Source: an uncultured virus (IMG/VR IMGVR_UViG_3300029319_000022) (taxonomy: Duplodnaviria; Heunggongvirae; Uroviricota; Caudoviricetes). Taken from it: 64,000 nucleotides of DNA. Location of the stretch: IMG/VR virus record IMGVR_UViG_3300029319_000022; one strand, written 5' to 3'. The notes under the pieces are model-generated. The model saw only the letters and a program-made list of their open reading frames with translations, did no database searches and had not been told where the DNA came from. Below, piece after piece: positions 1-12,427 of the stretch (within the stretch, counting starts at the first letter, position 1; the number at the start of each line of letters is the position of its first letter). The position numbers and the translations under genes are program-made.

Positions 1-75
1 TGATATGGAGAGCTTGGATATACTGTCTACCCTTTTTAATTAATTAAATATAATTTTAATTCATTTTAAATAACT

Positions 76-201
76 ATGGACAATTTTTACCCTTGGGGCT
101 TTATTATTATGTTCTTCTCTCTACTTATACTCTCTATTACTAGGGGGGAGAAAACATCACATCAGGATGATGATATAGATGACTACTGGAGCGATGGTTA
201 G
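76..201 (+). CDS. small putative membrane peptide (41 aa, MDNFYPWGFIIMFFSLLILSIT...)
   Basis: ATG 76 to TAG 201 read by eye; one hydrophobic stretch; below the ORF-track cutoff. Confidence 0.4.
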   Translation: MDNFYPWGFIIMFFSLLILSITRGEKTSHQDDDIDDYWSDG

Positions 202-366
202 TGTAGTATATATATAACCCCCAATAAAAGAAAACAAATGACACGGATAGAGTCGGTTTTATATCTATTATTTTTTATTATTGCAGTTTATATATTGTAT
301 AGTTATGTGACATAATTGAAACAACAATATTCTTCAAGTCGATTACAAATAAGCGTAATAATAAAC

Positions 367-519
367 ATGGAAGAAGAAATGAATCCAAGAGTGAACCAGA
401 GAAAGCGTAATAAACAAGAGGCGAAACAATATAAAAAACTTTATGCCACTCCGTGGGATATTCCAATATCGATTCTGACACTCTTAATAATAGCACTATT
501 AGTTATCTGTTTCAAATGA
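367..519 (+). CDS. small protein with C-terminal transmembrane helix
   Basis: ORF track 316..519, ATG at 367; basic N-terminus followed by hydrophobic IPISILTLLIIALLVICFK. Confidence 0.5.
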   Translation: MEEEMNPRVNQRKRNKQEAKQYKKLYATPWDIPISILTLLIIALLVICFK

Positions 520-643
520 TCCCAGATCAAATAAGTGGGGCTAAATAAACACATACAAATAATACATATATACCCAGATCTAATATCTAATATCAAATAA
601 CTTAATAACTAATAAGCCCAGATCAAATAACCAGTATTAAATA

Positions 644-664
644 AAGGCCCGCCATGCGGGCCTT
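644..664. terminator. GC hairpin where + and - transcription converge
   Basis: AAGGCCCGC-CAT-GCGGGCCTT perfect stem; weak U tract on the minus strand. Confidence 0.55.
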
Positions 665-689
665 CGTTGTGTATATACATATAAGCTAT

Positions 690-768
690 CGTAAGTGGTT
701 GATTATCAAGGACTTACGCATAGAGGGGGGCCGCGCATGCGTAACTCGTTCATGCTGAACGAGTTACA
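690..768. repeat. 79-bp double-palindrome element, copy 1
   Basis: CGTAAGTGGTT-GATTATC-AAGGACTTACG + 21-bp linker CATAGAGGGGGGCCGCGCATG + CGTAACTCGTT-CATGCTG-AACGAGTTACA. Confidence 0.95.
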
Positions 769-894
769 GCACCAGTTAAGTGATCACAAAAGGTTAGAAA
801 GAATGGGGTAATGACTCCCCGAAAACAACCCGTCGCAGGATCTCTCTGCGCTCTACTCCTAACTGGTGCGTATTTGTTGCGTATAACAAAACTT

Positions 895-1074
895 TTATTT
901 TTTTGCTTTTGCCTGTTTATATTCTTTATTCATTTGTTCTTTGAATCCATATGTGCCGATGCCTTTCTTGCGAAGCCATGCTTCGCAAGCATCGCCTACG
1001 ACCTTAGCGAGATTAGTATAAACCTCTTTTTTTTCTTGGTCTTTTATATTTGGTTCGTGTGGTATGCTTGTCAT
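895..1074 (-). CDS. hypothetical protein (59 aa, MTSIPHEPNIKDQEKKEVY...)
   Basis: ATG-to-TAA ORF read by eye, co-oriented with its neighbours; just under the track cutoff. Confidence 0.55.
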   Translation of the reverse strand: MTSIPHEPNIKDQEKKEVYTNLAKVVGDACEAWLRKKGIGTYGFKEQMNKEYKQAKAKK

Positions 1075-1142
1075 CTTAGTGCTAAAATTAAAAGTGCGAT
1101 TGCTAAAACAAAGATTAAACTTATTTGGTGATCCATTTTTTT

Positions 1143-1415
1143 TTACATCGTCATCCCCTCGGATAACTTACCACGCCTATCCATATAAATCAACTCAATT
1201 GCTTTCTGATTCATCTCGTCACTCTCTGAGTAGTAACTTGGCATTTCCTCAAGAACCTCTGAGCCATCTATATTAGTTATAGGTTTATACATCTTTAACT
1301 GATGCGTCTTGACTGCGTGAGTAATCCCCTTGGAATTATCGTATCGCAAGTCTATAAGAACATTAGTCTTAGTTAGTAAAAAACGGATTTGATTTGTGTA
1401 GTTAACTTCTTTCAT
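1143..1415 (-). CDS. hypothetical protein
   Basis: ORF track; ATGA overlap with the upstream ORF. Confidence 0.65.
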   Translation of the reverse strand: MKEVNYTNQIRFLLTKTNVLIDLRYDNSKGITHAVKTHQLKMYKPITNIDGSEVLEEMPSYYSESDEMNQKAIELIYMDRRGKLSEGMTM

Positions 1416-1585
1416 TTTAAATGTGTTTGTTTACATGGTACTATATCATAAGACCAGTCATTGCCAAATTGTTTTCTTAGTAGATAGATTTTTTTTCTCA
1501 ACCGATCAGCTGTAAAAAAACCTTTTACATTGTTATGTTCTGGGCCTCCTATTATTTTTAGTTTATATACTATATCGTCTTTCAT
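1412..1585 (-). CDS. hypothetical protein (MKDDIVYK...)
   Basis: ORF track 1412..1624; likely start at ATG 1585, directly after the upstream stop. Confidence 0.6.
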   Translation of the reverse strand: MKDDIVYKLKIIGGPEHNNVKGFFTADRLRKKIYLLRKQFGNDWSYDIVPCKQTHLK

Positions 1586-1587
1586 AT

Positions 1588-1794
1588 TTAATTTTTTACT
1601 TTTAAGAATTGTGTTCCGTCCCACTCAAGACCGTGTTCGGTCTCAAGATAGTTTTCTATCACTAACGCATCATTGTCTATTTCATTACTGCCCTCGTTAT
1701 CCCCACCATTAGCTAGCTCTTTGGACGCTTTATTTAAATCCGTGTGATAATCCTTTAGCACATCGACTATATCTCTTTCTTCCCAACTTCTCAT
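1588..1794 (-). CDS. hypothetical acidic protein
   Basis: ORF track; ATGA overlap with the Gp88-like gene. Confidence 0.6.
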   Translation of the reverse strand: MRSWEERDIVDVLKDYHTDLNKASKELANGGDNEGSNEIDNDALVIENYLETEHGLEWDGTQFLKVKN

Positions 1795-2498
1795 TTGTTT
1801 TTTACTTTTACAACAAAGCCAGAGTTATCTTGCTTTGCTTTTCCTTTTGCTTCTAGTCCGACTATTTTACCATGAGGATCAGTAAAACGCAAGTCGTGAT
1901 CGTCGCCACTGATAACTTCCATGCCTTCCCAAGTTTTCGGAATCTCATCGAACACAACGGCAACATTACCACCTTTTTTAATTACTTCTTTTATAAACTC
2001 AATGTCTGTTGTTTCGTCTCTACTAAAAGTAAGATGATAATTGTGAGGCATTTCAGAGTTATATCCTAGACCGCGACCGAGGAAAGCTCTCATTCTTTGT
2101 TTGCTCTTTGTGTAGTCGTAGAACTGTTGTTTTGGAAACTCTTGCATGATGCCATATTTTTCCCAACGGATATCACTTGTTAAGTTTAAACGAAAGCAAA
2201 CATTCATTTCTTTACGTGTTGCAAACCTTATACCTGCTTGGATATCCTTTACCAACTGAAGCACAAACTCAAACTTATTATCAAAGAATTTATTTGTTTT
2301 GTTTATCCTAGCCTCTTGAACCATATTCATCATTCCCCGACCTGCCGTATTTAAACAAGCTGTTGCACATCCTGGGGATGCGTTCGGGCAAACATTACGC
2401 CCCGACAAAGTAGACGGTGCAAAGTGCAAGCCGTAAGTTATGAAACCTTTTTGGAATCCCTTTAAAATTTTTGAGTTGCTAAGTGTTAAGTATCTCAT
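1791..2498 (-). CDS. Gp88-like phage protein (Cys-cluster protein)
   Basis: N-terminal NSKILKG, CPNASPGCATACLNTAGRG, RLNLTSDIRWE, FYDYTK, YHLTFS and GDDHDLRF motifs typical of the GP88 family. Confidence 0.8.
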   Translation of the reverse strand: MRYLTLSNSKILKGFQKGFITYGLHFAPSTLSGRNVCPNASPGCATACLNTAGRGMMNMVQEARINKTNKFFDNKFEFVLQLVKDIQAGIRFATRKEMNVCFRLNLTSDIRWEKYGIMQEFPKQQFYDYTKSKQRMRAFLGRGLGYNSEMPHNYHLTFSRDETTDIEFIKEVIKKGGNVAVVFDEIPKTWEGMEVISGDDHDLRFTDPHGKIVGLEAKGKAKQDNSGFVVKVKNK

Positions 2499-2503
2499 AT
2501 CAA

Positions 2504-2725
2504 TTAAATGCTATTAAGCTGATAGACTGTGTTGTCTAACAATATTTCAAATTTAGCCACTTGTCTATCAGTATCTGAGTTTTCGCTTTTATATTTCTTG
2601 ATATACTGAACCGCACCATCATAAGTAAACCATCCATTAATTGATTGGTCGCCATTTTGATGTAACATAAAGACCTGAAAGTCTTTTTTATCTTTATCTA
2701 TATTTATTGGATAGTCTTCTATCAT
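2504..2725 (-). CDS. hypothetical protein
   Basis: ORF track; own promoter immediately upstream. Confidence 0.7.
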   Translation of the reverse strand: MIEDYPINIDKDKKDFQVFMLHQNGDQSINGWFTYDGAVQYIKKYKSENSDTDRQVAKFEILLDNTVYQLNSI

Positions 2726-2731
2726 GTGTTA

Positions 2732-2760
2732 AAAGTAAACTATGATATATTCCATGTCAA
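2732..2760 (-). promoter_or_regulatory. sigma70-type leaderless promoter
   Basis: TTGACA-17-TACTTT, 6 nt before ATG 2725. Confidence 0.7.
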
Positions 2761-2823
2761 ATAAAAAATCATTTAATATAATTAAAATTAATTTTAATTA
2801 TAGCTTGACATATAGTTTTGCTT

Positions 2824-2902
2824 CATAACTCGTTGAGTATCAACGAGTTACGCACTGCGGGGGGCCGCGCATGCGTAAGTCGTTCATACTGAACGACTTA
2901 CG
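2824..2902. repeat. 79-bp double-palindrome element, copy 2
   Basis: CATAACTCGTT-GAGTATC-AACGAGTTACG + CACTGCGGGGGGCCGCGCATG + CGTAAGTCGTT-CATACTG-AACGACTTACG. Confidence 0.95.
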
Positions 2903-2939
2903 TAAGTTATTACTCAGACCCCTGTCAAGTTAAAAACAC

Positions 2940-2972
2940 AAAAAAAACCCGCACCCCTTTCGGGATGCGGGC
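2940..2972 (-). terminator. intrinsic terminator of the DUF932 gene
   Basis: minus strand CCCGCATCCC-GAAA-GGGGTGCGGG followed by a T8 tract. Confidence 0.85.
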
Positions 2973-2994
2973 GTGGTTGGTAAGGCGGGGCTAG

Positions 2995-3819
2995 TTATGC
3001 GGGTAAAACGACCTCCTCAGCTTCTATGATCTCAGGTGTATGACCTGCAACAGAATCAAAAAGACTCTGCATTTTCATAGTACGCTCTGGGAGCTTGGAC
3101 AAATCACCGCCCTTGAGATTTTCAGTTACGGAGTTGTACAAATTCCAGAGAGTGTTGCCTCTGAACTCAGGATGACGAGGATCACGAAACTCTTTGACAG
3201 TCTTGTAAACATCACGCTCTGGAAGAGCTTTGATCTCGGCAAGATCCACAACAAGATTAGAAGCCCTCTCAGGAGAGATTTCAGAATCTTTGTAAGCCAT
3301 GATTCTCTCGCCCATGTCATGCCATGACGAAACGATGCGACCGATAGCCTTGGCAAGCATCCCATCAAGATCACGAAGAATGTTGACAGTGTGACGGCGA
3401 GCGAGCTTAACGTCAGACGAAAAGCACATATTGTCGCAAACCAACATAGAATTACCCATGCAAGCGGAAGCCGCTGTGGACTTGTCGCTAGAGTTACGCA
3501 AGCCGAAAACAAGCCTCCTATCATCGCCCTTGATATCATCACCAGTTAAAGCGAATCCACCAAAGTAACGCTGACCGCCACGGGCCAGAGCGTGTTCCTC
3601 TTCAGTGATTGCAAAACCTGCACGATCTAAAGCCTTGCGAGTTTTATCAACTAGCAAGCTGTGAGGGATAGGCGTATGACTATCCGTTTTTGGGGGAGTC
3701 TTAACCGCCCGAAGTTGATCATCTACAGAGAGAGTCTCAACGTTATGTGAAGTCCAAACCGATCCTGCACTTGGGCGTGTGATCGGCTCCAGTTTATTTT
3801 TTGCGAATATAAGTGACAT
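2995..3819 (-). CDS. DUF932/DUF945-family protein
   Basis: TPPKTDSHTPIPH, FGLRNSSDKS, VCDNMCF, RRHT and TLWNLYNSVTENLK motifs; start placed at ATG 3819 after the promoter. Confidence 0.8.
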   Translation of the reverse strand: MSLIFAKNKLEPITRPSAGSVWTSHNVETLSVDDQLRAVKTPPKTDSHTPIPHSLLVDKTRKALDRAGFAITEEEHALARGGQRYFGGFALTGDDIKGDDRRLVFGLRNSSDKSTAASACMGNSMLVCDNMCFSSDVKLARRHTVNILRDLDGMLAKAIGRIVSSWHDMGERIMAYKDSEISPERASNLVVDLAEIKALPERDVYKTVKEFRDPRHPEFRGNTLWNLYNSVTENLKGGDLSKLPERTMKMQSLFDSVAGHTPEIIEAEEVVLPA

Positions 3820-3828
3820 AATGAGGTA

Positions 3829-3857
3829 ACTATAACCGCAGAAAACAAAAAAGTAAA
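3829..3857 (-). promoter_or_regulatory. sigma70-type promoter with very short leader
   Basis: TTTACT-17-TATAGT, 9 nt before ATG 3819. Confidence 0.7.
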
Positions 3858-3955
3858 GAGAAAAAAACAAAAAAGTTTAGGTTAAATATTTGCTTGACAA
3901 ATATTTATTATATTATTACTTGACAAAGTTATCATGGCGTATGAGTAGGATCATT

Positions 3956-4034
3956 TGTAACTCGTTGAGTATCAACGAGTTACGCACCGCGGGGGGCCGC
4001 GCATGCGTAAGTCGTTCATACTGAACGACTTACG
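3956..4034. repeat. 79-bp double-palindrome element, copy 3
   Basis: differs from copy 2 at only 3 positions (first two bases and one linker base). Confidence 0.95.
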
Positions 4035-4050
4035 TAAGCACTTAACAGCA

Positions 4051-4415
4051 CAAAAAAAAACCGCCGACAGTTTCTGAAGAGCATAACAGCCCTCTTATTC
4101 CTGCCGACGGCTTTATTTTAAGAAACCGCCGATAGCTTCGAGTCATTAAGGTCTATTTAAAGACCGCTCTGTCACTATCGACGGCTCCCCTACTGGCGGG
4201 AGCGCTCCGTTGGGGCTTGCCTCCAGTATTTAGGTTTGGGATTGTTCTCCGTAGAGTTGGCGGTAAATCCCTTTATAACCATACCAATGTTTCATCGTCA
4301 CTTGCCTTGGAGTCGAAACCCAACAAGGGGGCGAGCTTAGGGAAACAGTTTGCACTGTGGCTCGTTCCTTTCGGAAGTCATTACCTTAACCTGTAAACTC
4401 GGTGACTATACCCTC
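4051..4415 (-). ncRNA. candidate structured non-coding RNA (chain of stem-loop domains ending in a terminator-like stem and U tract)
   Basis: no ORF of 60 aa or more; GC higher than flanks; many nested stems, including TTCC-GAAA-GGAA, CAGT-GCAA-ACTG, TACTGG..CCAGTA, GGGATT..AATCCC and two GCCGTCG..TCGGCGGT stems. Confidence 0.5.
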
Positions 4416-4634
4416 CTAGGATTCTTCTGCGTGTAACGCAAATTTTTCGTTTAATGTATTAGCGTGTTTACGTGTCCACTTTACATTATCCATAAAGTTA
4501 TCAAGCTTGTCATCTGCAACGTCAGCCATTCTGTCGGCTAGTGTTTGATGTACTACGCCCAAGGCATAGTTAAGCAAAGTTGCTTGGTCTTTATTTTTTA
4601 CTTCAATGCGAACTGATTCAGTTGTTTTTGCCAT
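4416..4634 (-). CDS. hypothetical protein
   Basis: ORF track. Confidence 0.7.
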   Translation of the reverse strand: MAKTTESVRIEVKNKDQATLLNYALGVVHQTLADRMADVADDKLDNFMDNVKWTRKHANTLNEKFALHAEES

Positions 4635-4706
4635 ATTATATATTTGTTGTTAAGTTAAAAAGATTTGTCGGCTTTAAGGCTATTCCAGCATCTAGGAACT
4701 GACCGA

Positions 4707-4871
4707 CTACCTTTCCGCGAAAATGTCATTATGGAGTAGCTCAACAGCTTCATCATCCATTTTCTCGTAAACGTACATTAACAAAAGGTCGATTATCTCA
4801 GCCTCATCCATCGAGTGGAATTCTCTTTCAGCTAACTCAAAGCGTTTTTGTTTAAGCTCGTCTGTATTCAT
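4707..4871 (-). CDS. hypothetical acidic protein (54 aa, MNTDELKQKRFELAERE...)
   Basis: ATG-to-TAG ORF read by eye. Confidence 0.6.
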   Translation of the reverse strand: MNTDELKQKRFELAEREFHSMDEAEIIDLLLMYVYEKMDDEAVELLHNDIFAER

Positions 4872-4949
4872 ATTATTAAATTATTTTTAAGGAGTGGATG
4901 ACGAGACTCACCCCCATGAACATCTCGCCATCCGTCCTTAACTCCAGTT

Positions 4950-5207
4950 TTATACTATGACATTGATGCTGTCAATATATAAATTTCTATATTTTTCCAC
5001 TCCAGAATCATCTACATCTGAGACCTTTGCAGTTATGAACTGCTCACTTGTTTCCCAGTGTCTCCCGACCCTATCAATGGATTCGATTTTAAAAGTTCTC
5101 ACTCCGTTATCAGTAACGGATGATTTGTTTTGTGTGTTTGTGTACCTGACAGTTTTACCTGCTAAGTATGACGCTAGTTGAGTTGGATTTAAGGATTGTA
5201 ATTTCAT
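4950..5207 (-). CDS. hypothetical protein (possible SH3-like beta fold)
   Basis: ORF track; own promoter. Confidence 0.7.
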   Translation of the reverse strand: MKLQSLNPTQLASYLAGKTVRYTNTQNKSSVTDNGVRTFKIESIDRVGRHWETSEQFITAKVSDVDDSGVEKYRNLYIDSINVIV

Positions 5208-5213
5208 GTCTCT

Positions 5214-5242
5214 AATCTACCACAGATTTAAAAGGGGTGCAA
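5214..5242 (-). promoter_or_regulatory. sigma70-type leaderless promoter
   Basis: TTGCAC-17-TAGATT with TG extension, 6 nt to ATG. Confidence 0.7.
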
Positions 5243-5258
5243 GTATTTTTTTGCTTTT

Positions 5259-5465
5259 TTATTTTTTTGTTAAGGGTTTCGCTTCAATGTCAGAGATATC
5301 AGTGCCGACATACCTAACATTAAACTCAAGTTGATCATTGAGTTCATCAGGATTATGAAGAAGATCTTTAGCAACGATTTCGCCATTTTCAACAAAGAGG
5401 CAGAAACCGCCGTCTACAGATGCACTATTTAAATGTGCCATTATTTCATCAATTCTATTGTTCAT
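5259..5465 (-). CDS. hypothetical protein
   Basis: ORF track; own promoter. Confidence 0.7.
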   Translation of the reverse strand: MNNRIDEIMAHLNSASVDGGFCLFVENGEIVAKDLLHNPDELNDQLEFNVRYVGTDISDIEAKPLTKK

Positions 5466-5471
5466 GATCGA

Positions 5472-5500
5472 ACTATAAACTATAAATAGACAAATAGCAA
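5472..5500 (-). promoter_or_regulatory. sigma70-type leaderless promoter
   Basis: TTGCTA-17-TATAGT, 6 nt to ATG. Confidence 0.7.
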
Positions 5501-5547
5501 ATATAAATTAATAAAAAAGAATAAAAATTCAAGTACGTATTAACTTA

Positions 5548-5626
5548 TGTAAGTCGTTGAGTATCAACGACTTACGCACCGCGGGCGGCCGCGCCCGCGT
5601 AACTCCTTCATTATGAGGGAGTTACG
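5548..5626. repeat. 79-bp double-palindrome element, copy 4
   Basis: TGTAAGTCGTT-GAGTATC-AACGACTTACG + CACCGCGGGCGGCCGCGCCCG + CGTAACTCCTT-CATTATG-AGGGAGTTACG. Confidence 0.95.
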
Positions 5627-5713
5627 TCAGGTTTTATGCGCTTACCTGACAGGCTATGAAAATGACCAGAGAGGAAAATCAAGTAAACCCCACCGACGCA
5701 ATACCTAACTCTA

Positions 5714-5986
5714 CTAAAAAAATCTTTTCTTTGCTACTAGCTCTTCAAGGTCTTCGAGCTTTTGAACTATCTCTTTTTTATTCCATTTAAATCGCATATC
5801 ATTACGCAAGAAGTGAAGCTCGAACTTTATATCTCCTAACATTCTTAAAAGATTACTTCTGTTTTGATTTTGGATTTTTTCTTCCCTGTCTATTATTGGA
5901 GCTAAGTTTTTTTCATTCATGTTTTTTATTTGCCAGTTTTTTCCTAAGTTAAGAATTGCTTCGTTTAGTTTTTCGAATTTAGTCAT
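5714..5986 (-). CDS. hypothetical coiled-coil protein
   Basis: ORF track. Confidence 0.65.
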   Translation of the reverse strand: MTKFEKLNEAILNLGKNWQIKNMNEKNLAPIIDREEKIQNQNRSNLLRMLGDIKFELHFLRNDMRFKWNKKEIVQKLEDLEELVAKKRFF

Positions 5987-5987
5987 G

Positions 5988-6230
5988 TTAGATTTTTGAA
6001 TTTAGTTTATCTACTGCCCAATCAAAGCACGTTAGTATGAAGCCCCACACTAACGGAAGCCCAAACATTATGAACATGACTGAGTCGCCATTCCAACCTC
6101 TTATACTATCTCTAAGAGAATCCCCAGAGCCGAATGAGATTGCGAGTATCATTATTAGGAGGGTAGCGATTAGACTTGCTAAGCAAGCGACCAAGTACCA
6201 GTGAATGAATTTATTTAATATTTTTTTCAT
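5988..6230 (-). CDS. small protein with two transmembrane helices
   Basis: ORF track; two hydrophobic segments. Confidence 0.7.
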   Translation of the reverse strand: MKKILNKFIHWYLVACLASLIATLLIMILAISFGSGDSLRDSIRGWNGDSVMFIMFGLPLVWGFILTCFDWAVDKLNSKI

Positions 6231-6235
6231 GATTA

Positions 6236-6267
6236 AGTATAGTTGACCTTGCCCCGAAGGGCAAGGT
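6236..6267 (-). promoter_or_regulatory. leaderless promoter whose -35 box and spacer form a TTCG-loop hairpin
   Basis: TTGCCC-17-TATACT; ACCTTGCCC-TTCG-GGGCAAGGT. Confidence 0.7.
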
Positions 6268-6280
6268 TTATTTTATAATT

Positions 6281-6508
6281 TTATCCGAAGATTATTTTAT
6301 CAAAGTCATCTTCTTTTAAAGCCTTGTCTAGACCTGTTTCAACTTTTTTGAAGTCTTGAGTTGCGAGATGCCATCTCGCCGCACCACCGACTTTAGAGCC
6401 GTCATGCCATTCTGACATAGCGGAAAGCTGACCTGATGCCATGATCATTTCAGTGCGGAGTTTATTGTGAGCGGTGATTAATGCGTTGATTTTTTCTTTA
6501 TCTGTCAT
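6281..6508 (-). CDS. hypothetical protein
   Basis: ORF track; own promoter. Confidence 0.7.
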   Translation of the reverse strand: MTDKEKINALITAHNKLRTEMIMASGQLSAMSEWHDGSKVGGAARWHLATQDFKKVETGLDKALKEDDFDKIIFG

Positions 6509-6514
6509 GATTTG

Positions 6515-6543
6515 AATATACTTTATTATTGGAGTTAATGCAA
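6515..6543 (-). promoter_or_regulatory. sigma70-type leaderless promoter
   Basis: TTGCAT-17-TATATT, 6 nt to ATG. Confidence 0.7.
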
Positions 6544-6562
6544 GAATTTATTTTATTTTTTT

Positions 6563-6769
6563 TTAGAACCAAGCTTTGAGGATCTCAGGCTCGATTACCT
6601 CAAAAACCACTTCATCCATTTCGTCAACTCTTACGTGTACGATTCTATTACCTTCGACCCAGTCGCAATCGTCTTCAATGTGAAACACAACCCCAGTGTC
6701 AACAAACTCCAGGTTATCGCCATGCTTAAAAGTTACTCTGTCATTGATTTCTATATCAGTTATTTTCAT
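6563..6769 (-). CDS. hypothetical acidic protein (MKITDIEINDRVTF...)
   Basis: ORF track; start moved to ATG 6769 because the upstream codons are the promoter. Confidence 0.7.
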   Translation of the reverse strand: MKITDIEINDRVTFKHGDNLEFVDTGVVFHIEDDCDWVEGNRIVHVRVDEMDEVVFEVIEPEILKAWF

Positions 6770-6775
6770 GTGGTA

Positions 6776-6804
6776 ACTATACCACACCTTGAAAGAAAAA
6801 GCAA
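6776..6804 (-). promoter_or_regulatory. sigma70-type leaderless promoter
   Basis: TTGCTT-17-TATAGT with TG extension. Confidence 0.75.
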
Positions 6805-6832
6805 GTAAAAAAAGTATTTTTTTTATTTTATT

Positions 6833-6911
6833 TGTAAGTCGTTCAGTGTGAACGACTTACGCATCGGCGGGGGCCGCGCCCGCGTAACTCCTTGATACTC
6901 AAGGAGTTACG
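6833..6911. repeat. 79-bp double-palindrome element, copy 5
   Basis: TGTAAGTCGTT-CAGTGTG-AACGACTTACG + CATCGGCGGGGGCCGCGCCCG + CGTAACTCCTT-GATACTC-AAGGAGTTACG. Confidence 0.95.
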
Positions 6912-6925
6912 TAAGCTTTTACTGG

Positions 6926-7165
6926 TCAATCCCAGCGGTCAAAGATGACCTTGTTGCCCTTGGTGAGCATTTTGCGGCCCATGATAGGCACACCCTGCTC
7001 ACCATACTCGCGGATGGATGGACGGACCTCCATGGAGGTGGCCCGCTTGGCAGAGCGGGACATGTACACGTAGGTGGTCTCCCCACACTCCCAGTTGCCC
7101 CCGCAAGACGGCGGATTTTGCATATACTCGGTGACAGTGAATTTATAGATATTGGAATTTCTCAT
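6926..7165 (-). CDS. hypothetical protein, GC-rich gene (MRNSNIYK...)
   Basis: ORF track; start moved to ATG 7165. Confidence 0.7.
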   Translation of the reverse strand: MRNSNIYKFTVTEYMQNPPSCGGNWECGETTYVYMSRSAKRATSMEVRPSIREYGEQGVPIMGRKMLTKGNKVIFDRWD

Positions 7166-7171
7166 GATGTA

Positions 7172-7200
7172 ACTATAACACAGATTAGAATTAAAAGCAA
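7172..7200 (-). promoter_or_regulatory. sigma70-type leaderless promoter
   Basis: TTGCTT-17-TATAGT with TG extension. Confidence 0.75.
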
Positions 7201-7221
7201 GAACTTTTTTGTGTTTTTTTC

Positions 7222-7449
7222 TCACCCCTCGGTGAGCGCGTCGAGGCGAAGATCAGGCTCATCCTGCTCTGCCCATTTCGCATCCATGTGAGCGCGAGCG
7301 TCGTCCATGCGACTGTCAAGCCACGCCTCGAACTCCTCGCGCTCCTGCGCCTCATTGAGAAGCTCGTTGATCGCGCGATTGTCCACGCCGAACTCGGTTC
7401 CTTCGTTAGTAAGATCTCTAATGTCTGAAGTAGTAAGTGAATTTTTCAT
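7222..7449 (-). CDS. hypothetical acidic protein, GC-rich gene (MKNSLTTSD...)
   Basis: ORF track; start moved to ATG 7449. Confidence 0.7.
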   Translation of the reverse strand: MKNSLTTSDIRDLTNEGTEFGVDNRAINELLNEAQEREEFEAWLDSRMDDARAHMDAKWAEQDEPDLRLDALTEG

Positions 7450-7455
7450 GCCCAG

Positions 7456-7484
7456 AGTATAACACAGATTAAAAAGATAGTCAA
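7456..7484 (-). promoter_or_regulatory. sigma70-type leaderless promoter
   Basis: TTGACT-17-TATACT with TG extension. Confidence 0.8.
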
Positions 7485-7584
7485 ACAATTTTGTTTATTT
7501 TTTTGTAGATCGCAGGTCGTGGGTTAAATAGTAAATAGATTAATAGTAAATAGTACTTGACACATAGCCTTGCGTAAGAACTTA

Positions 7585-7663
7585 CGTAAGTCGTTGAGTA
7601 TCAACGACTTACGCCGCCGCGGCGGGCGCTCGTGCGTAACTCGTTCAATATCAAAGAGTTACG
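7585..7663. repeat. 79-bp double-palindrome element, copy 6
   Basis: CGTAAGTCGTT-GAGTATC-AACGACTTACG + CCGCCGCGGCGGGCGCTCGTG + CGTAACTCGTT-CAATATC-AAAGAGTTACG. Confidence 0.95.
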
Positions 7664-7695
7664 ATAGTAGTTGATAACCGTGTTTTATATACTTT

Positions 7696-7774
7696 AGTAA
7701 CTCGTTAAGTATCAACGACTTACGCAAGAAGGGCGGCCCGCGCCGCGTAACTCGTTGGCTGTCAACGAGTTACG
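7696..7774. repeat. 79-bp double-palindrome element, copy 7
   Basis: AGTAACTCGTT-AAGTATC-AACGACTTACG + CAAGAAGGGCGGCCCGCGCCG + CGTAACTCGTT-GGCTGTC-AACGAGTTACG; only 32 bp from copy 6. Confidence 0.95.
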
Positions 7775-7783
7775 TAAGGTTAT

Positions 7784-7933
7784 TTATTTTTCTATCAGCT
7801 GACTCAATTCTCTCATTTTGTCAAGAATTATTTTTGATTTTTCTCGGCGACTTAACTGATCAGATTTTTCAACCCACTGGCAAAATTCTCCGATGACTCT
7901 GATTTTTTCTCTGGTGGCAAACTTATTTTTCAT
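7784..7933 (-). CDS. small helical protein (49 aa), paralog of 8581..8790
   Basis: MKNKFATREKIRVIGEFCQWVEKSDQLSRREKSKIILDKMRELSQLIEK read by eye; own promoter. Confidence 0.7.
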   Translation of the reverse strand: MKNKFATREKIRVIGEFCQWVEKSDQLSRREKSKIILDKMRELSQLIEK

Positions 7934-7938
7934 ATCTG

Positions 7939-7967
7939 AATTTAACACAGAATTTTATTTAACGCAA
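7939..7967 (-). promoter_or_regulatory. sigma70-type leaderless promoter
   Basis: TTGCGT-17-TAAATT with TG extension, 5 nt to ATG. Confidence 0.7.
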
Positions 7968-7976
7968 GTTTTTATT

Positions 7977-8201
7977 TTATTTTTTTTCAAACTCTCGCAG
8001 AAGTTTTTCTGCGTTAGCTCTGAAGTCTCCAGAGATCGCCACATCCAAAGCCAACCAGACGATGTTGCGAACTGTTCGCTTGTCATCGGTGGCAAGCTCT
8101 TTACAGATGAGATCTGTCAACAAGTCAGCATCCTCAATGTAACGAGGTGCAGATTTAAGGGCGAGGCAAGCGATGTCGTAAGTATTGATATTATTTTTCA
8201 T
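7977..8201 (-). CDS. hypothetical protein (MKNNINTYDIAC...)
   Basis: ORF track; start moved to ATG 8201. Confidence 0.7.
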   Translation of the reverse strand: MKNNINTYDIACLALKSAPRYIEDADLLTDLICKELATDDKRTVRNIVWLALDVAISGDFRANAEKLLREFEKK

Positions 8202-8206
8202 GCCTG

Positions 8207-8235
8207 AATATAACACAGGTGCAGAGAAAAAGCAA
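8207..8235 (-). promoter_or_regulatory. sigma70-type leaderless promoter
   Basis: TTGCTT-17-TATATT with TG extension. Confidence 0.75.
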
Positions 8236-8302
8236 GTAAAAAGTTTATTTTTTTTCGATTATTTTTTTGTATAATGCCCGATAACCGCCTTTTGACTACT
8301 TT

Positions 8303-8381
8303 AGTAAGTCGTTAAGCGTCAACGACTTACGCAGGACGGGCCGCCCGCGGTGCGTAACTCGTTGAGTGTCAACGACTTACG
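8303..8381. repeat. 79-bp double-palindrome element, copy 8
   Basis: AGTAAGTCGTT-AAGCGTC-AACGACTTACG + CAGGACGGGCCGCCCGCGGTG + CGTAACTCGTT-GAGTGTC-AACGACTTACG. Confidence 0.95.
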
Positions 8382-8412
8382 AAGGTTTTTTTAGCACACT
8401 CTCGCCGACCTG

Positions 8413-8571
8413 TCAAGTATTTTTTTTACTTTTTTTGTCAAGTATTTTTTTCCATTTTTTTTGCGCGCCGTCGGCGGTTCCTTCAGATCTTAGAAGAATC
8501 TTAAAAGTTTCCCAAGGTGGTTTAGGCGCTCTTAACGAGCGCCACATTTTCATTCGTTCGTTTGGTGTCAT
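8413..8571 (-). CDS. possible small basic protein (52 aa, MTPNERMKMWRSL...)
   Basis: ORF read by eye, 9 nt after the upstream stop; 3' half is low complexity. Confidence 0.35.
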   Translation of the reverse strand: MTPNERMKMWRSLRAPKPPWETFKILLRSEGTADGAQKKWKKILDKKSKKNT

Positions 8572-8580
8572 GTTAGAGAT

Positions 8581-8790
8581 TTATCTTTTAAGAATTTTTA
8601 CTAGTGACTTGATAGGCTTTGCCACAGCGTCTGCCTCAGCTTGAAGTGCTGACAGCTCTCGCATTTTCTTAGTGACGAAGTCAGCTTTTTCATTAGCTGA
8701 GAGATCATCTCTGCCCATTGCCCAATCACATAAATCTGCGATGGCTGACATTTCTGCGGTAAGTTTTAAAAGTTTATCAGTGTTTTTCAT
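8581..8790 (-). CDS. small helical protein, paralog of 7784..7933
   Basis: ORF track; own promoter. Confidence 0.7.
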   Translation of the reverse strand: MKNTDKLLKLTAEMSAIADLCDWAMGRDDLSANEKADFVTKKMRELSALQAEADAVAKPIKSLVKILKR

Positions 8791-8796
8791 GATTTA

Positions 8797-8825
8797 AGTT
8801 TACCACAGATTTTTATTTAACGCAA
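8797..8825 (-). promoter_or_regulatory. sigma70-type leaderless promoter
   Basis: TTGCGT-17-TAAACT with TG extension. Confidence 0.75.
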
Positions 8826-8829
8826 GTAT

Positions 8830-9012
8830 TTATTTTGTTTTTTTATAGAATTCTTGATTCATGAGTGCCTCGGCAATCTCATCGGCTAGCTCTTTAAAGT
8901 TTTTTGAAGTTGGACCAATTGGCAAAATGCCATGATCCATGAGACGGCTTTGGGCCTCTGTTAAACATTTGATGTAGTCGGTATCTGTTAAGTGCTTAGG
9001 TGCTTTTTTCAT
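8830..9012 (-). CDS. hypothetical protein
   Basis: ORF track; own promoter. Confidence 0.7.
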   Translation of the reverse strand: MKKAPKHLTDTDYIKCLTEAQSRLMDHGILPIGPTSKNFKELADEIAEALMNQEFYKKTK

Positions 9013-9018
9013 GATTTA

Positions 9019-9051
9019 AGTATACTCGATCTTGCGCCGAAGCGCAAGATC
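9019..9051 (-). promoter_or_regulatory. leaderless promoter whose -35 box and spacer form a TTCG-loop hairpin
   Basis: TTGCGC-17-TATACT; GATCTTGCGC-TTCG-GCGCAAGATC. Confidence 0.7.
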
Positions 9052-9065
9052 TTTTTAATGTTTTT

Positions 9066-9317
9066 TTACCAAGCTAACTCATGCGAGCTTCTCCTATCTG
9101 CATCTCGTCTAGCTTCATCTAGCGCGGCCCACTCTTCGGCCTCTTCGCGCTCCATCATTTCGATTACTTCACCTTCAGAAAACAGGTATCCGTCTTCGTC
9201 GATAAAGCTATCGCCATTTACTGGCTTCAGATTTTTATCCTCTGCGAACTGATATAATTCTTTCTCGAATTCTGATAACTCAAGACCTTCTAGTGAATCT
9301 ATTTTAATTTTTTCCAT
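9066..9317 (-). CDS. highly acidic small protein
   Basis: ORF track; very D/E-rich. Confidence 0.7.
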   Translation of the reverse strand: MEKIKIDSLEGLELSEFEKELYQFAEDKNLKPVNGDSFIDEDGYLFSEGEVIEMMEREEAEEWAALDEARRDADRRSSHELAW

Positions 9318-9322
9318 GATTA

Positions 9323-9351
9323 AGTTTACTCTACTTTTTATTTAAACGCAA
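9323..9351 (-). promoter_or_regulatory. sigma70-type leaderless promoter
   Basis: TTGCGT-17-TAAACT, 5 nt to ATG. Confidence 0.75.
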
Positions 9352-9367
9352 GATCTTTTTTGTTTTT

Positions 9368-9598
9368 TTATATGCTCAACTTGTTGAGCATAGGAGACCA
9401 ATCACGGCTGACCATGTCGGCTAAACTTTCGCTTATGTCATCGATGGAGTCGATGGCGATCTCCTGCTCGCCTCCGTCTTGATCCATACCCCACACAAAC
9501 CCATTTTCGAAGTCTGTATCTACCACGACAAACCACTCACCACGCGCGGTGAACTCAACTCCATTACCTAAACGATTGATTAATTCTTTATTTTTCAT
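9368..9598 (-). CDS. hypothetical acidic protein
   Basis: ORF track; own promoter. Confidence 0.7.
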   Translation of the reverse strand: MKNKELINRLGNGVEFTARGEWFVVVDTDFENGFVWGMDQDGGEQEIAIDSIDDISESLADMVSRDWSPMLNKLSI

Positions 9599-9604
9599 AC
9601 TGTA

Positions 9605-9633
9605 AGTATACCACAGAATCGCATAAAAGTAAA
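9605..9633 (-). promoter_or_regulatory. sigma70-type leaderless promoter
   Basis: TTTACT-17-TATACT with TG extension, 6 nt to ATG. Confidence 0.75.
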
Positions 9634-9830
9634 GCTTTTTTTACATTTTTTTTTATTTTTTTTTATTAATATTTTGCTTGACAAGTACCCTACCCCATTT
9701 CTAGAAAAAACTTGACAAGATATACGTAGCAAGTCGCGGGGGGTGTCCGATTTCAATTTCTAAATGACGTTCACCGCATGAATATTTTTCATGGTAGCGT
9801 AGACTGAGCAGAGTGTAAAACACTGTGCCC

Positions 9831-10097
9831 ATGCACAAAAACAAAAAACTAATTAAGGAAATTAGAATGCGCCGAAACAAAGTTCGGTTTGAGCGTTACT
9901 ATGTTGATGGAGTGCCAAAGTTTTTAATTTACGCGGAAGGGCCGCATTATCAAATATGGAAGCGGGTGAACGCAGATTACTATATCGCGAAGGAGAGTTT
10001 TTATAGATATAGATTTTTTGTGTGGTTTATTGATTTGTTTAATGATTTTTATCCTGTTACAAGACTTATATGTTTATTGATGAATAAATTGATATGA
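9831..10097 (+). CDS. hypothetical protein
   Basis: ORF track; GTGTAA at 9813. Confidence 0.5.
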   Translation: MHKNKKLIKEIRMRRNKVRFERYYVDGVPKFLIYAEGPHYQIWKRVNADYYIAKESFYRYRFFVWFIDLFNDFYPVTRLICLLMNKLI

Positions 10098-10181
10098 CCC
10101 CCCGTTTTTGTAAAAAAATATAAATCGGGGGCAATTTAATTTTTATTGTTTAAAAAAAATAATCGGCACGTATAATTTGGT

Positions 10182-10343
10182 ATGCCGCTTGATTTAATCA
10201 CAAAGTATGTCCCATTGGTAGCTGGGATTATGTATACATTTGTTGCGACTGCCTATTTTTTAAAAAAAGAATATGGTTGGGGTATAATCTGGATATCATA
10301 TGCTACTGCTAATTTTGGGCTTATAGTAGTTGGTAATGAATAA
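10182..10343 (+). CDS. small protein with two transmembrane helices (53 aa, MPLDLITKYVPLVAGIMY...)
   Basis: ORF read by eye; two hydrophobic segments. Confidence 0.6.
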   Translation: MPLDLITKYVPLVAGIMYTFVATAYFLKKEYGWGIIWISYATANFGLIVVGNE

Positions 10344-10361
10344 TAGGTGTAATAAACTGGG

Positions 10362-11207
10362 ATGAGTTTATTATATAGTGAAGTTCCTGTTTATGTGGGC
10401 GCGGCAAACGCTACAACTATAACAGAGAATACTGCTTATGTGCCAGCTTTGGATGCTAGTGTAGATTTTGGCGCACAATTAGTTGGTAAAAGGTTTTTGG
10501 GGCAGGATGTAACATCAACCGATCAATTTAAGACAGCTGGTCCTCGTGAGGCTTCTATTTCTATAAAAGCTATATTAGATCCATTTACTGATGCGGCATT
10601 TGCATTTGCAAAGTCTAGTAATCAGGATGCGTCTTTTCCTATAAGAATTGGAAACAATACATATCAGGATTGTTTCTTGAGTGATTTTAGTTTATCTGTT
10701 GATAATTTCGCGCCAGTTACAATTGATGCTAATTTTGTTTCTCTTTCGCCGCCTACTGGTGGTAATGTTTCTGGAGATGCAAGCCCTTATGCAGGTGGAA
10801 CTATACCATTTGATCCTGATGATATTGTGTATGGTTATACCTGTAGTTTGTCAAATGCTACTCAAGCTGTTGGAAATGTTCAGTATAGAGTAAGTTACAA
10901 AAAGACTTTCAATAGAACTCCTGTTTATACTTTGGGCGCGGCCAATGCTACTTCTATGTTACTTAATGGAGTTGAATCTGAGATGAGCATAGAATCGACT
11001 GGTTTAAATTCTTTGATTGATTTTAGTGGTGGGGCCATAAGTTCTGATGTGACTTTGGGATTAAATAATATAGATGGAGATGGATTATCCACAAACCTAC
11101 CTAATGTTGTCATGGTTAACGGTTCGAAAGTTGTTACCCAGAGTTACAGCATAGCAGGTAGTGATACTGTAAATACAAGAGCAACAATAAAACAAATAGA
11201 TTTATAA
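10362..11207 (+). CDS. virion structural protein, tail-tube-like (paralog of 35385..36200)
   Basis: S/T/G/N-rich beta composition; shared motifs (FLSDFSLSV..APV vs YLNNWSINC..APV; NRTPVYTLG vs NRKPYYSIG). Confidence 0.6.
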   Translation: MSLLYSEVPVYVGAANATTITENTAYVPALDASVDFGAQLVGKRFLGQDVTSTDQFKTAGPREASISIKAILDPFTDAAFAFAKSSNQDASFPIRIGNNTYQDCFLSDFSLSVDNFAPVTIDANFVSLSPPTGGNVSGDASPYAGGTIPFDPDDIVYGYTCSLSNATQAVGNVQYRVSYKKTFNRTPVYTLGAANATSMLLNGVESEMSIESTGLNSLIDFSGGAISSDVTLGLNNIDGDGLSTNLPNVVMVNGSKVVTQSYSIAGSDTVNTRATIKQIDL

Positions 11208-11692
11208 TGGATTTAGAATTAGATTTTAGCGACGAAATAAGGGCTAAGTGGAGTATGAAGCGCAAGCGTAAGATTGATTGCGACAACCCCAAAGGATTTA
11301 GTCAGAAGCAGTATTGTAAAAGACAAGAGCGAGGTGGAGCATACAAAACAAAAGCAGATGAAAAAAGAACCCCCGAAAAAAGAAAAGATGGCACTAAGAG
11401 GCCAAAGTCTGAACATTCTGATTTGTATACAGATGAAGACCCCAAAGGTACTATAAAAGGGCTTGGATTCAAAGATGCTGAGACTGCTAAAAAAAGTGTT
11501 GCTATTATTGAGAAAGCAAGAAGGCCACATAAACATAAAGTGCAAGCCACCATGGCTATGGAGCAAAGATCTAGGTTTGCAGCTAAAAATGCTAAAGATC
11601 CTGAGAAAAAGAAAAAACTCACTGCCGCGAATAAAATATATAAAGCTTATCTAGAAAAATTAAAGAAAAGGACTAAGGAGCGAAACAAATAG
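11207..11692 (+). CDS. basic modular phage protein (possible internal head protein)
   Basis: DCDNPKGFSQKQYC and HSDLYTDEDPKGTIKGLGFKD modules, recalled from aquatic phage hypothetical proteins. Confidence 0.6.
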   Translation: MDLELDFSDEIRAKWSMKRKRKIDCDNPKGFSQKQYCKRQERGGAYKTKADEKRTPEKRKDGTKRPKSEHSDLYTDEDPKGTIKGLGFKDAETAKKSVAIIEKARRPHKHKVQATMAMEQRSRFAAKNAKDPEKKKKLTAANKIYKAYLEKLKKRTKERNK

Positions 11693-11707
11693 GTGTAAAT
11701 ATAATAA

Positions 11708-12427
11708 ATGCCCCGAAAAAAATCGAGTCAATCTTCACCATTTGATTTTAGCTCTCAAATACACTCTATAAACTTCAAGCAAAGGGAGTTTAACTTTTCC
11801 AACAAACAGCAGTTATTGCTAGAGGCAGTCTTAGATCCTGAGATGAAAATTATTTTTGTTTCAGGGCCAGCGGGATCTAGTAAGACTTACATGTCAGTTT
11901 ATGGCTGTTTACAGATAATGGCTAAAGATTTTAGTAAAGATCTAATATACATAAGAAGTATTGCTGAAAGTGCTGACAAAGGATTAGGCAGTTTGCCTGG
12001 AGATATATCAGATAAGTTCAATCCGTTTTTGATGCCGCTTTACGATAAGTTGGATGAAATGGTACATGAAGGCGATACAGCCTACATGAAAAAAATAGAA
12101 CGCATATCGGCAGTGCCAATTAACTTTTTAAGAGGAGCTAACTGGAACAATAAGCTCATTGTGGCAGATGAGGCTCAAAACTTTACATTTAAAGAATTAA
12201 CTACTCTGATTACTAGAATAGGTGAGAATACAAAATTAATTATATGCGGCGATTTCATGCAGAGCGACATAAACGGCAGAAGCGGGTTCAAAGAAATGTT
12301 TGATCTGTTTAATTGTGAAGAATCTAAAGAGCAAGGTATAACTTCATTTAAGTTCAACAACAGAGATATAGTTAGAAGTAAAATTTTAAAATATATTGTA
12401 TCTAAGATAGAAAAACACAAAAAATAA
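11708..12427 (+). CDS. phoH: PhoH-family ATPase
   Basis: GPAGSSKT Walker A, LGSLPGD, FLRG, DEAQN, TRIGE, GDFMQSD, DIVRS. Confidence 0.95.
   Translation: MPRKKSSQSSPFDFSSQIHSINFKQREFNFSNKQQLLLEAVLDPEMKIIFVSGPAGSSKTYMSVYGCLQIMAKDFSKDLIYIRSIAESADKGLGSLPGDISDKFNPFLMPLYDKLDEMVHEGDTAYMKKIERISAVPINFLRGANWNNKLIVADEAQNFTFKELTTLITRIGENTKLIICGDFMQSDINGRSGFKEMFDLFNCEESKEQGITSFKFNNRDIVRSKILKYIVSKIEKHKK

Follow-up and report, generated by a model that had tools for sequence, protein, structure and literature searches.

The window, a stretch of 64,000 nucleotides (nt) from an uncultured tailed virus (IMG/VR record IMGVR_UViG_3300029319_000022), carries on its minus strand an early gene for a protein of 72 amino acids (aa). 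A structured region follows this gene directly. It runs on the minus strand from 4415 to 4052, that is, from right after the TAG stop codon to a run of nine T (T9). We found that this region is a non-coding, strand-specific, conserved structured RNA. Five modules follow one another in it, in the order A, D, C, T1 and T2 from 5' to 3' on the minus strand. The gene, the flank and the modules lie as follows.

4416..4634, minus strand: 72-aa early gene, taken from the list of open reading frames (ORFs), with its stop codon TAG at 4418-4416 directly 5' of the structured region
4407..4415, minus strand: conserved single-stranded 5' flank of module A, GAGGGTATA, in which AGGGTATAG is invariant in 19 of 19 variants (alignment A2)
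4288..4406, minus strand: module A, a three-way junction according to RNAalifold on 19 variants
4232..4287, minus strand: module D, with a conserved leader at 4287-4272
4191..4228, minus strand: module C, with the outer helix TACTGG (4228-4223) paired to CCAGTA (4196-4191)
4120..4187, minus strand: T1, with a basal stem of 4186-4175 and 4135-4124, a structured 39-nt apical insert and the tail TTTCTT
4052..4113, minus strand: T2, with a stem of 4112-4101 and 4070-4059 (12-13 base pairs, bp), a 40-nt insert and then T9 at 4060-4052

The fold of the whole region (376 nt) on the minus strand had an energy of -126.8 kcal/mol and a z-score of -2.98, and 1 of 100 shuffled sequences folded as well. 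On the plus strand the z-score was -0.57, and 32 of 100 shuffles were as good. Hairpins closed by GNRA or UNCG tetraloops number five on the minus strand versus 1.06 expected (P = 0.003, 1000 dinucleotide shuffles) and zero on the plus strand; one of the five, GGGA, is probably incidental. G-U pairs together with the strand asymmetry argue that the region acts as RNA rather than as duplex DNA. The initial annotation, made from the sequence alone, had proposed a multi-domain structured RNA of no known class on this strand, and had named GNRA loops and G-U-compatible mismatches as the reason for the choice of strand. Both points held up in the fold, in the tetraloop count, in the base pairs of the relatives and in the Rfam search described below, and every sequence element it listed lies where it had been placed on the minus strand. 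The thermodynamic signal comes almost wholly from T1 and T2, because the z-scores of modules A, D and C lie within those of the shuffles. Thus, the comparison with shuffled sequence, which had been named as a possible refutation, favours the RNA for the whole region, T1 and T2 and does not favour it for A, D and C.

The same annotation had called the region ORF-free. This was loosely put, since the minus strand does hold ORFs of 30-41 aa; the non-coding character stands, since these ORFs are not conserved. All three minus-strand frames hold stops. A 21-codon ORF (4230-4295, minus strand) opens at an ATG at 4295-4293, which all 19 variants of module A share unchanged; by eye, the sequence and the length after this ATG vary between loci, from roughly 9 to 38 codons. 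Could the region nevertheless encode small proteins, for example this ORF or the 41-aa ORF at 4230-4355? The minus-strand ORFs and the invariance of ATGAAACA, which follows P1 in all 19 variants of module A, would fit such a reading. The frame, however, is not conserved. Where variants differ in length, they do so at hairpin tips, and the difference is in most cases no multiple of three; hairpin-loop changes of 4, 7, 8 and 9 nt shift the reading frame. In our own reading of alignment A2, the conserved ATG appears to sit in an extension of helix P1, and the genes of this phage show no use of Shine-Dalgarno motifs. We give the small-protein explanation almost no credence.

Module C provides the strongest comparative evidence. 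Inside its outer helix lies a 26-nt apical core (4222-4197, minus strand), which is conserved, irregular and partly unpaired. A search with patterns of the core returned 14 viral stretches, one of them a chance match (L036), and 72 metagenome stretches. In 59 of 86 loci obtained with the patterns the 72-aa gene lies within the retrieved flank, and many of the others are truncated. Among 185,579 cellular genomes there was one chance-level match to module C, without the flanking features. The 43 distinct 57-nt variants of module C all keep the apical core, 13 positions of which were fixed by the search patterns. The closing helix, on the other hand, is built from at least eight unrelated complementary sequences of 3 to 12 bp. 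When the 5' and 3' flanks of the same sequence were paired with each other, a mean of 6.0 consecutive pairs was obtained, versus 2.6 with flanks taken from other types.

In the ungapped alignment of C, five of five variable helix pairs have changed on both sides. The cells with both-side changes number 54 versus 29 ± 4.6 in shuffles, and none of 500 shuffles was as high; the covariation score is 0.227 versus 0.126 (0 of 500). The 13-18 unpaired cells per pair come largely from rows in which the helix register is shifted by one, the type of the window among them. One pair within the core alternates between G-T in 32 variants and G-C in 11. Across all variants we counted 66 G-T or T-G pairs and not a single A-C mismatch, which shows that the RNA strand is the minus strand of the window. 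Covariation, whose absence would have spoken against the initial annotation, was seen in C and also in A and the T stems, although the counts do not stand for independent events.

The window contains one copy of C, both with up to 3 mismatches allowed and by covariance model. In the window plus its 23 relatives (190,514 bases), covariance model R1 retrieved only the nine known copies. Module C occurs in three gene contexts: downstream of the 72-aa gene; between a different gene and the 72-aa one, with its 12-bp helix as the sole hairpin there; and downstream of a 60-aa gene of a third family. It thus stands at the 3' region of three unrelated small genes. That the core is kept while the helix has been rebuilt at least eight times in these three contexts implies selection on the core, and a motif of about 26 nt carried on helices of unrelated sequence indicates a specific partner. 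A search of the 64-kb window for an antisense partner of the core gave 7 matches with up to 3 mismatches versus 4.75 expected, and the sole exact match was the core's own complement.

Module A opens the region. Its parts, all on the minus strand, are listed here.

4406-4402 (GTCAC) with 4301-4297 (GTGAC), minus strand: helix P1, invariant and paired in 19 of 19 variants
4401-4394 CGAGTTTA with 4339-4332 TAAGCTCG, minus strand: helix P2, paired in 19 of 19 variants
4393-4359, minus strand: distal sub-module, including the hairpin TTCC-GAAA-GGAA at 4376-4365
4358-4345, minus strand: hairpin ACAGT-GCAA-ACTGT
4328-4305, minus strand: hairpin P3 with a TTCG tetraloop
4296-4288, minus strand: conserved tail GATGAAACA

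Alignment A2 comprises 19 distinct variants of this module. RNAalifold recovered P1, P2, P2a, the GAAA hairpin and P3 from it, 24 pairs in all, four of which have changed on both sides. Among the six pairs of P2, two positions show a both-side change in one sequence each, and at a third position T-A has become T-G in 9 of 19. The closing pair of the hairpin ACAG.../...CTGT is C-G in seven variants, T-A in five and T-G in four. The TTCC-GAAA-GGAA hairpin is present in all 11 variants that carry its sub-module. P3 of the window differs in sequence from that of most relatives and again forms a hairpin, in its case with a TTCG tetraloop. The z-scores of module A are -0.91 on the minus strand and -0.57 on the plus strand. 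Two pairings of the initial annotation, AGTCA with TGACT and CGAGC with GCTCG, gave way to P1 and P2: they are not the conserved pairings, and both need a sub-module that many variants lack. Its hairpin with a T-loop-like loop folds instead as CCTTG/CAAGG plus GGGT-TTCG-ACTC with a UNCG tetraloop, and ARAGORN found no tRNA.

Inserts of 4 to about 43 nt distinguish the variants of module A, and they lie solely at hairpin tips. The P2a tip has 4 nt in the window (GCAA) and also 4 nt in L001, and it reaches about 43 nt in variants with an inserted two-hairpin sub-module. This 42-nt sub-module sits at the P2a tip in L002 (3218-3352) and in most loci, and at the P3 tip in L003 (3217-3376). The word ACAGC or ACAGT precedes both sites, which suggests exchange by short homology.

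Module D follows module A, with these elements behind its leader.

4271-4266 (GGGATT) with 4243-4238 (AATCCC), minus strand: outer stem of module D
4256-4247, minus strand: inner hairpin CTC-TACG-GAG of module D

It occurs in further metagenome loci besides those counted below. Neither the outer stem nor the conserved internal-loop sequence varies in any copy, which leaves no covariation to be seen here. The inner stem CTC/GAG is kept around loops of 4, 7, 8 or 9 nt, except where the inner hairpin is missing altogether; this pattern would suit a hairpin and not a reading frame. The z-scores of D are -0.42 on the minus strand and -0.84 on the plus strand.

The two related domains at the 3' end, each with an inner hairpin and the last with a final T9, had been noticed in the initial annotation. 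They are present as described; as to their nature, we regard T1 and T2, on sequence grounds, as terminator-type hairpins with decorated tips. Their z-scores on the minus strand were -5.93 and -5.12, and none of 200 shuffles was as good in either case; on the plus strand they were -3.02 and -1.10. The pattern common to both gave two adjacent copies in the window versus zero expected. The 29 distinct variants of the T family have a basal stem of about 12 bp in common and differ in their apical inserts, of which there are 25 kinds (4-49 nt). One pair of the stem is T-A in 22 variants, C-G in six and T-G in one, and two more alternate between A-T and G-T. Some G-U pairs of the T stems are fixed, which also favours the minus strand; one such T-G pair falls within the fixed search pattern. 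In 23 of the 29 variants, the 10 nt at and after the stem end include at least 8 T. Thus, T1 and T2 have the GC-rich stem and the following U tract of a terminator, and they lack its loop of about 3-8 nt, with inserts of 39 and 40 nt in the window. In L035 (732-1043), four T-type hairpins stand in tandem on the same basal stem, each with a different apical insert.

Searches of RNA catalogues assigned the region to no family. Rfam 15 gave no match at gathering score in the whole 64-kb window. At E ≤ 10, three chance-level matches were obtained in 3800-4700, none of them on the minus strand within 4051-4415 and none from the tRNA clan. The Rfam check that had been asked of this strand thus revealed no family. 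The tail of relative L013 gave one chance-level match only. Models of ROOL, GOLLD, 6S, tmRNA, RNase P, IMES RNA and ribozymes did not match the region in Rfam 15, and ARAGORN predicted no tRNA genes in the 64-kb window. RNase P RNA was considered as a candidate because a motif in C types and one in module B (described below) looked like parts of it. We rejected it: there was no Rfam RNase P match in the window or in L013, and RF00010 was not found in G001, the nearest virus record. A comparison with E. coli rnpB gave only isolated 9-11-mers (in the relatives, one 9-mer and one 10-mer) and none of at least 9 nt on the sense strand of the window.

These results bear on a group of further explanations, namely a tRNA-like RNA, a self-cleaving ribozyme, an antitoxin mimic or an element acting at the DNA level, such as a protein-binding palindrome or an origin. 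Multiple hairpins, a TTCGA in a loop and the palindromic repeat next to the region could be taken in their favour. A tRNA-like RNA does not agree with the absence of ARAGORN predictions and of an Rfam family, nor with the loop in question, which is a TTCG tetraloop hairpin. For a ribozyme, which the initial annotation had offered as an example, no ribozyme model matches at E ≤ 10, hammerhead, twister, pistol, hatchet and hepatitis delta virus-like models included. Its antitoxin mimic fared no better, as the two related units of 62-68 nt form no tandem repeat array and PADLOC found nothing among nine neighbouring proteins. A DNA element is opposed by the G-U pairs and the strand asymmetry. Taken together, explanations of this group are very improbable.

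We compared the window with 23 syntenic loci (L001-L023), 24 loci in all. It turned out that the DNA behind the 72-aa gene is a mosaic: stretches of the tail occur at 82-100% identity, and elsewhere they are missing or joined to other conserved pieces. Module A is present in 8 of the 24 loci, D in 4, C in 9 and a T-type hairpin in 9; T1 and T2 occur together only in the window and L004. A further piece, module B, is absent from the window and present in 14 loci. It was found in L005-L008 and L013-L023, about 12-225 nt past the stop of the 72-aa homologue, and consists of some 50 nearly invariant nt with a C/T-rich hairpin behind them; Rfam gave no match to it. The slot of L009-L011 holds a single terminator hairpin.

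The modules can be far better conserved than the gene beside them. In L004 the gene has 87% nucleotide identity versus 100% for D, C and T2; in L014 and L015, 73% versus 100% for T1; in L013, 74% versus 98% for the first 95 nt of the tail. Overall, modules 97-100% identical stand beside genes that are 73-87% identical at the nucleotide level (L004, L005, L013, L014 and L015). These sequences show that related marine phages exchange the modules as cassettes.

Such a mosaic could also arise if the junction between early-gene cassettes were a recombination hot spot in which hairpin cassettes accumulate and are reshuffled. The modules would then be cargo, for the most part neutral or selfish, with the terminator function alone being of importance to the phage. 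Near-identical modules in diverged backgrounds are what this explanation predicts. It would also account for the 42-nt sub-module being at the P2a tip in most loci and at the P3 tip in L003, for the duplication of T-type hairpins (up to four in tandem in L035), for the loci L009-L011, which manage with one terminator hairpin, and for the thermodynamically unexceptional folds of A, D and C. Yet cargo would hardly keep the core of C through at least eight rebuildings of its helix in three gene contexts, which indicates selection. Nor would it be expected to maintain helices by compensatory and wobble changes, and module C is absent from the cellular genomes apart from the chance-level match. We consider the cargo explanation unlikely.

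In five of the 23 relatives the slot contains a tRNA-Met (CAT) gene, 227-273 nt behind the 72-aa homologue. A terminator-like hairpin directly precedes this gene, and a repeat of about 110 nt follows it. All of them score 74-75 bits in Rfam.

L016, 3474-3549: tRNA-Met gene
L017, L018 and L019, 3428-3502: tRNA-Met gene in each
L023, 3474-3549: tRNA-Met gene

Separately, L011 has a 66-nt match to the tmRNA model at 1200-1265 (49.5 bits versus a gathering score of 47), about 1.7 kb upstream of the 72-aa homologue. To judge by its sequence, this may be a tRNA-like fragment.

Parts of the stretch are held by 20 public sequencing runs, six of which are RNA libraries with small shares. Contigs of four RNA libraries from three studies were mapped to 3700-4900.

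X15, 246-nt contig: covers 4075-4292 with 2 differences, tail sequence only
X17, 350-nt contig: covers 4173-4517, from a sample shared with X18
X18, 319-nt contig: covers 4204-4517, from a sample shared with X17
X16, 164-nt contig: covers 4474-4637, ORF only

The X17 and X18 contigs join the 3' part of the ORF to modules A, D and C, and they carry the P3 version of most relatives. No RNA-library contig covers 3905-4068 or 4643-4900.

The contig of tail sequence only raises the question of whether one or several stable stand-alone RNAs are cut from the tail and act in trans, for instance by drawing off a host RNA-binding protein, nuclease or defence sensor as a decoy or sponge would. The mRNA would then be a precursor, and the product could be likened to small RNAs derived from 3' untranslated regions (UTRs) or to the subgenomic flavivirus RNA (sfRNA). 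Conserved unpaired nucleotides presented on helices of free sequence are consistent with this explanation, as are the hypervariability of the slot in its module counts and the X15 contig at 4075-4292; the tRNA-Met genes in the same slot of 5 of 23 relatives suggest a slot for small stable RNAs. Against it, a promoter scan found no promoter-like site inside 4051-4415 on the minus strand, the contigs reveal neither a processing site, a 5' end nor abundance, and the antisense matches in the window remain at chance level (7 versus 4.75 expected). A promoter-like site at 4513-4485 was rejected as a candidate; it lies inside the 72-aa ORF and is unlike the phage's own early promoters. A trans-acting tail RNA is possible, in our estimation, without being probable.

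We favour, with moderate confidence, the reading that the early transcript of the 72-aa gene has 4415-4052 as its 3' untranslated tail, a chain of independently folding modules with a proposed role in termination, protection and docking. That it is a 3' UTR and not a free-standing RNA gene is the simplest reading, and it is supported by the position of the region, which begins 1 nt past the stop codon and closes with T9 just ahead of the repeat and the next gene. T1 and T2 would close the transcription unit and, jointly with A, D and C, may keep 3'-to-5' exonucleases away from the 3' end. The invariant unpaired nucleotides of C, and those of the junction of A and its flanks, would dock a trans-acting factor, most likely a protein, and the docked factor would set the fate of the transcript 3' end, that is, its stability, termination or processing. 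The modules may have spread via recombination between related phages. We infer termination, protection and docking from where the region lies, from its U tracts and from a core that is invariant and partly unpaired whereas the helices change freely.

Several observations weigh against the 3' UTR reading. Modules A, D and C fold no better than shuffled sequence; for C, the minus strand has a z-score of -1.20 and the plus strand folds better (-19.8 kcal/mol, z = -2.31). The invariance of the C core is partly a product of the search patterns, which left only the flanks GAGG and CC free, and this in the viral scan only. Many variants are closely related, so the covariation counts do not stand for independent events. 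The tips of T1 and T2 (39-40 nt) far exceed textbook loops of 3-8 nt, and a consensus terminator scanner listed neither hairpin. The RNA-library contigs may contain DNA carry-over; they show presence and contiguity rather than strand, ends or level. Finally, the tRNA-Met gene behind a terminator-like hairpin in five relatives hints that transcripts run through the hairpin and are processed, in which case the region may do more than close an mRNA passively.

The window comes from a large tailed phage, which encodes a tape-measure protein of 2025 aa, a large terminase (TerL), a ribonucleotide reductase and a DnaB-type helicase. A close cultured relative was not found: the relatives of TerL in the phage collection are only 22-26% identical, and blastn of 3900-4700 against 50,697 phage records gave no matches. 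In the nearest virus record, the 31.7-kb fragment G001, the region has no match. The 72-aa protein has relatives at 63-96% identity in 23 viral contigs (tblastn) and no match in Pfam, PHROG, PADLOC or PDB, as judged by family and solved-structure searches. Small genes on the minus strand fill bases 1-10000, and the structured stretch, with a G+C of 0.45-0.49, is above most of its surroundings. The repeat that marks its downstream border lies outside the RNA.

3933..4057, strand unassigned: neighbouring copy of the double-hairpin repeat

This palindromic repeat of about 110 nt is built of a GC-rich centre between two long hairpins. Within 1-12000 there are seven copies of each of two overlapping families, at eight places in total:

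691-791
2801-2925
3933-4057
5525-5649
6810-6934
7562-7686
7673-7797
8280-8393

The repeat always lies between a terminator and the following promoter. The same place is kept in the relatives, where with a loose pattern it follows the terminator in 21 of the 24 syntenic loci.

The gene downstream of the region (2995-3870, minus strand) has a G+C of 0.45-0.51 and contains a DUF932 domain (E = 3.5e-11). It probably starts at an ATG near 3818 and not at the TTG at 3870. A GP88 domain was found in the ORF 1791-2498. A -10-like hexamer lies about 6 nt upstream of the minus-strand start codons at 5207, 6230, 6508, 7488, 8790, 9012, 9317 and 9598. The hexamers TATACT, TAAACT or TATAGT stand before many early genes, with a TTGC/TTGAC -35-like box 17 nt further upstream. 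Such hexamers at about 6 nt from the starts of early genes suggest leaderless mRNAs. Upstream of 37 plus-strand genes, the Shine-Dalgarno motif is almost absent.

We compared the tail with known systems. As putative terminators, T1 and T2 resemble intrinsic terminators and 3' stabiliser hairpins in their GC-rich stems of about 12 bp, in the U-rich tails directly behind these and in closing a unit ahead of the next promoter. They differ in that the stem is conserved while the tip is swapped (25 inserts of 4-49 nt in 29 variants) and in their tandem arrangement. The flavivirus 3' UTR gives rise to sfRNA and contains exonuclease-resistant RNA (xrRNA), dumbbell and terminal stem-loop modules; a ring-forming pseudoknot defines the xrRNA. 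The tail described here is likewise long and made of separate, duplicated and exchangeable modules, the first of which is a three-way junction next to a conserved single-stranded flank. The three-way junction at the 5' edge that characterises an xrRNA is present in module A (P1, P2 and P3 in the 19-variant consensus). Alignment A2 also contains complementary GGG in the 5' flank and CCC or CCT in the junction, near-invariant candidate partners for a ring-forming pseudoknot. Unlike the flavivirus case, there is no sequence or covariance-model match to xrRNA, and the host here is a bacterium, which lacks Xrn1.

ROOL and GOLLD are large ornate RNAs of phages and prophages whose function is unknown and which sometimes lie beside tRNA genes. 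Our region shares with them its multi-domain build in a phage and the tRNA-Met gene in the same slot of 5 of 23 relatives. Neither model matches it, however, and the RNA here is smaller, lies directly behind a coding gene and consists of separable modules instead of one large fold. The REP/BIME, BOX and ERIC elements are thought to stabilise the upstream mRNA and to spread by recombination. They are also short hairpin modules forming a mosaic in 3' intergenic regions, but they are dispersed in many copies per genome, whereas the 64-kb window holds one copy of C and two adjacent T hairpins, and the conservation here is between phage genomes. The species 1 and 2 RNAs of phage T4, which are processed like tRNAs, are similar in being phage-encoded structured RNAs that share a locus with tRNA genes.

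In T4-type phages, small early genes are set apart by PeSL (promoter-early stem-loop) cassettes, each a promoter plus a terminator, at which modules have been shuffled between related phages (Arbiol et al. 2010, PMC2839356). The early region of the window has a comparable layout of terminator, repeated element and promoter. PeSL cassettes are simple promoter and stem-loop units, however, and a 365-nt multi-module RNA with a conserved apical motif has no counterpart in the account given there. Another study has catalogued 8,495 candidate viral RNAs (PMC10690425). Six IMG/VR sample numbers were unmatched in six of its supplementary files; the alignment files of this catalogue lay outside the search, and the modules may be listed there. 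Literature searches, judged by titles and the starts of abstracts, gave no paper describing this RNA among those listed. Thus, the modular tail RNA is new to Rfam and to the other catalogues searched.

A bolder picture can be drawn by analogy with sfRNA and with protein anti-defence hot spots. The slot would be the RNA counterpart of such hot spots in phage early regions, a hypervariable RNA cassette locus in which A, with a possible pseudoknot of flank and junction, stalls RNA decay by the host and a stable tail of about 360 nt accumulates. The C motif, held up on a helix of arbitrary sequence, would bait a host RNA-binding protein, nuclease or immune sensor, and relatives would swap in other modules or a tRNA-Met gene to match their hosts. 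We regard this picture as speculative and doubtful.

The phage lineage that carries the tail is common in ocean metagenomes: the C pattern occurs in 72 metagenome stretches and the region is present in DNA runs of several studies. If the function of the tail is merely termination and protection, the result is a useful annotation and no surprise. The nested architecture, in which sub-modules are swapped at hairpin tips, is a clear natural example of modular RNA evolution. The partner of C, once found, would reveal how the end of an early transcript is controlled or how the phage engages the host RNA machinery.

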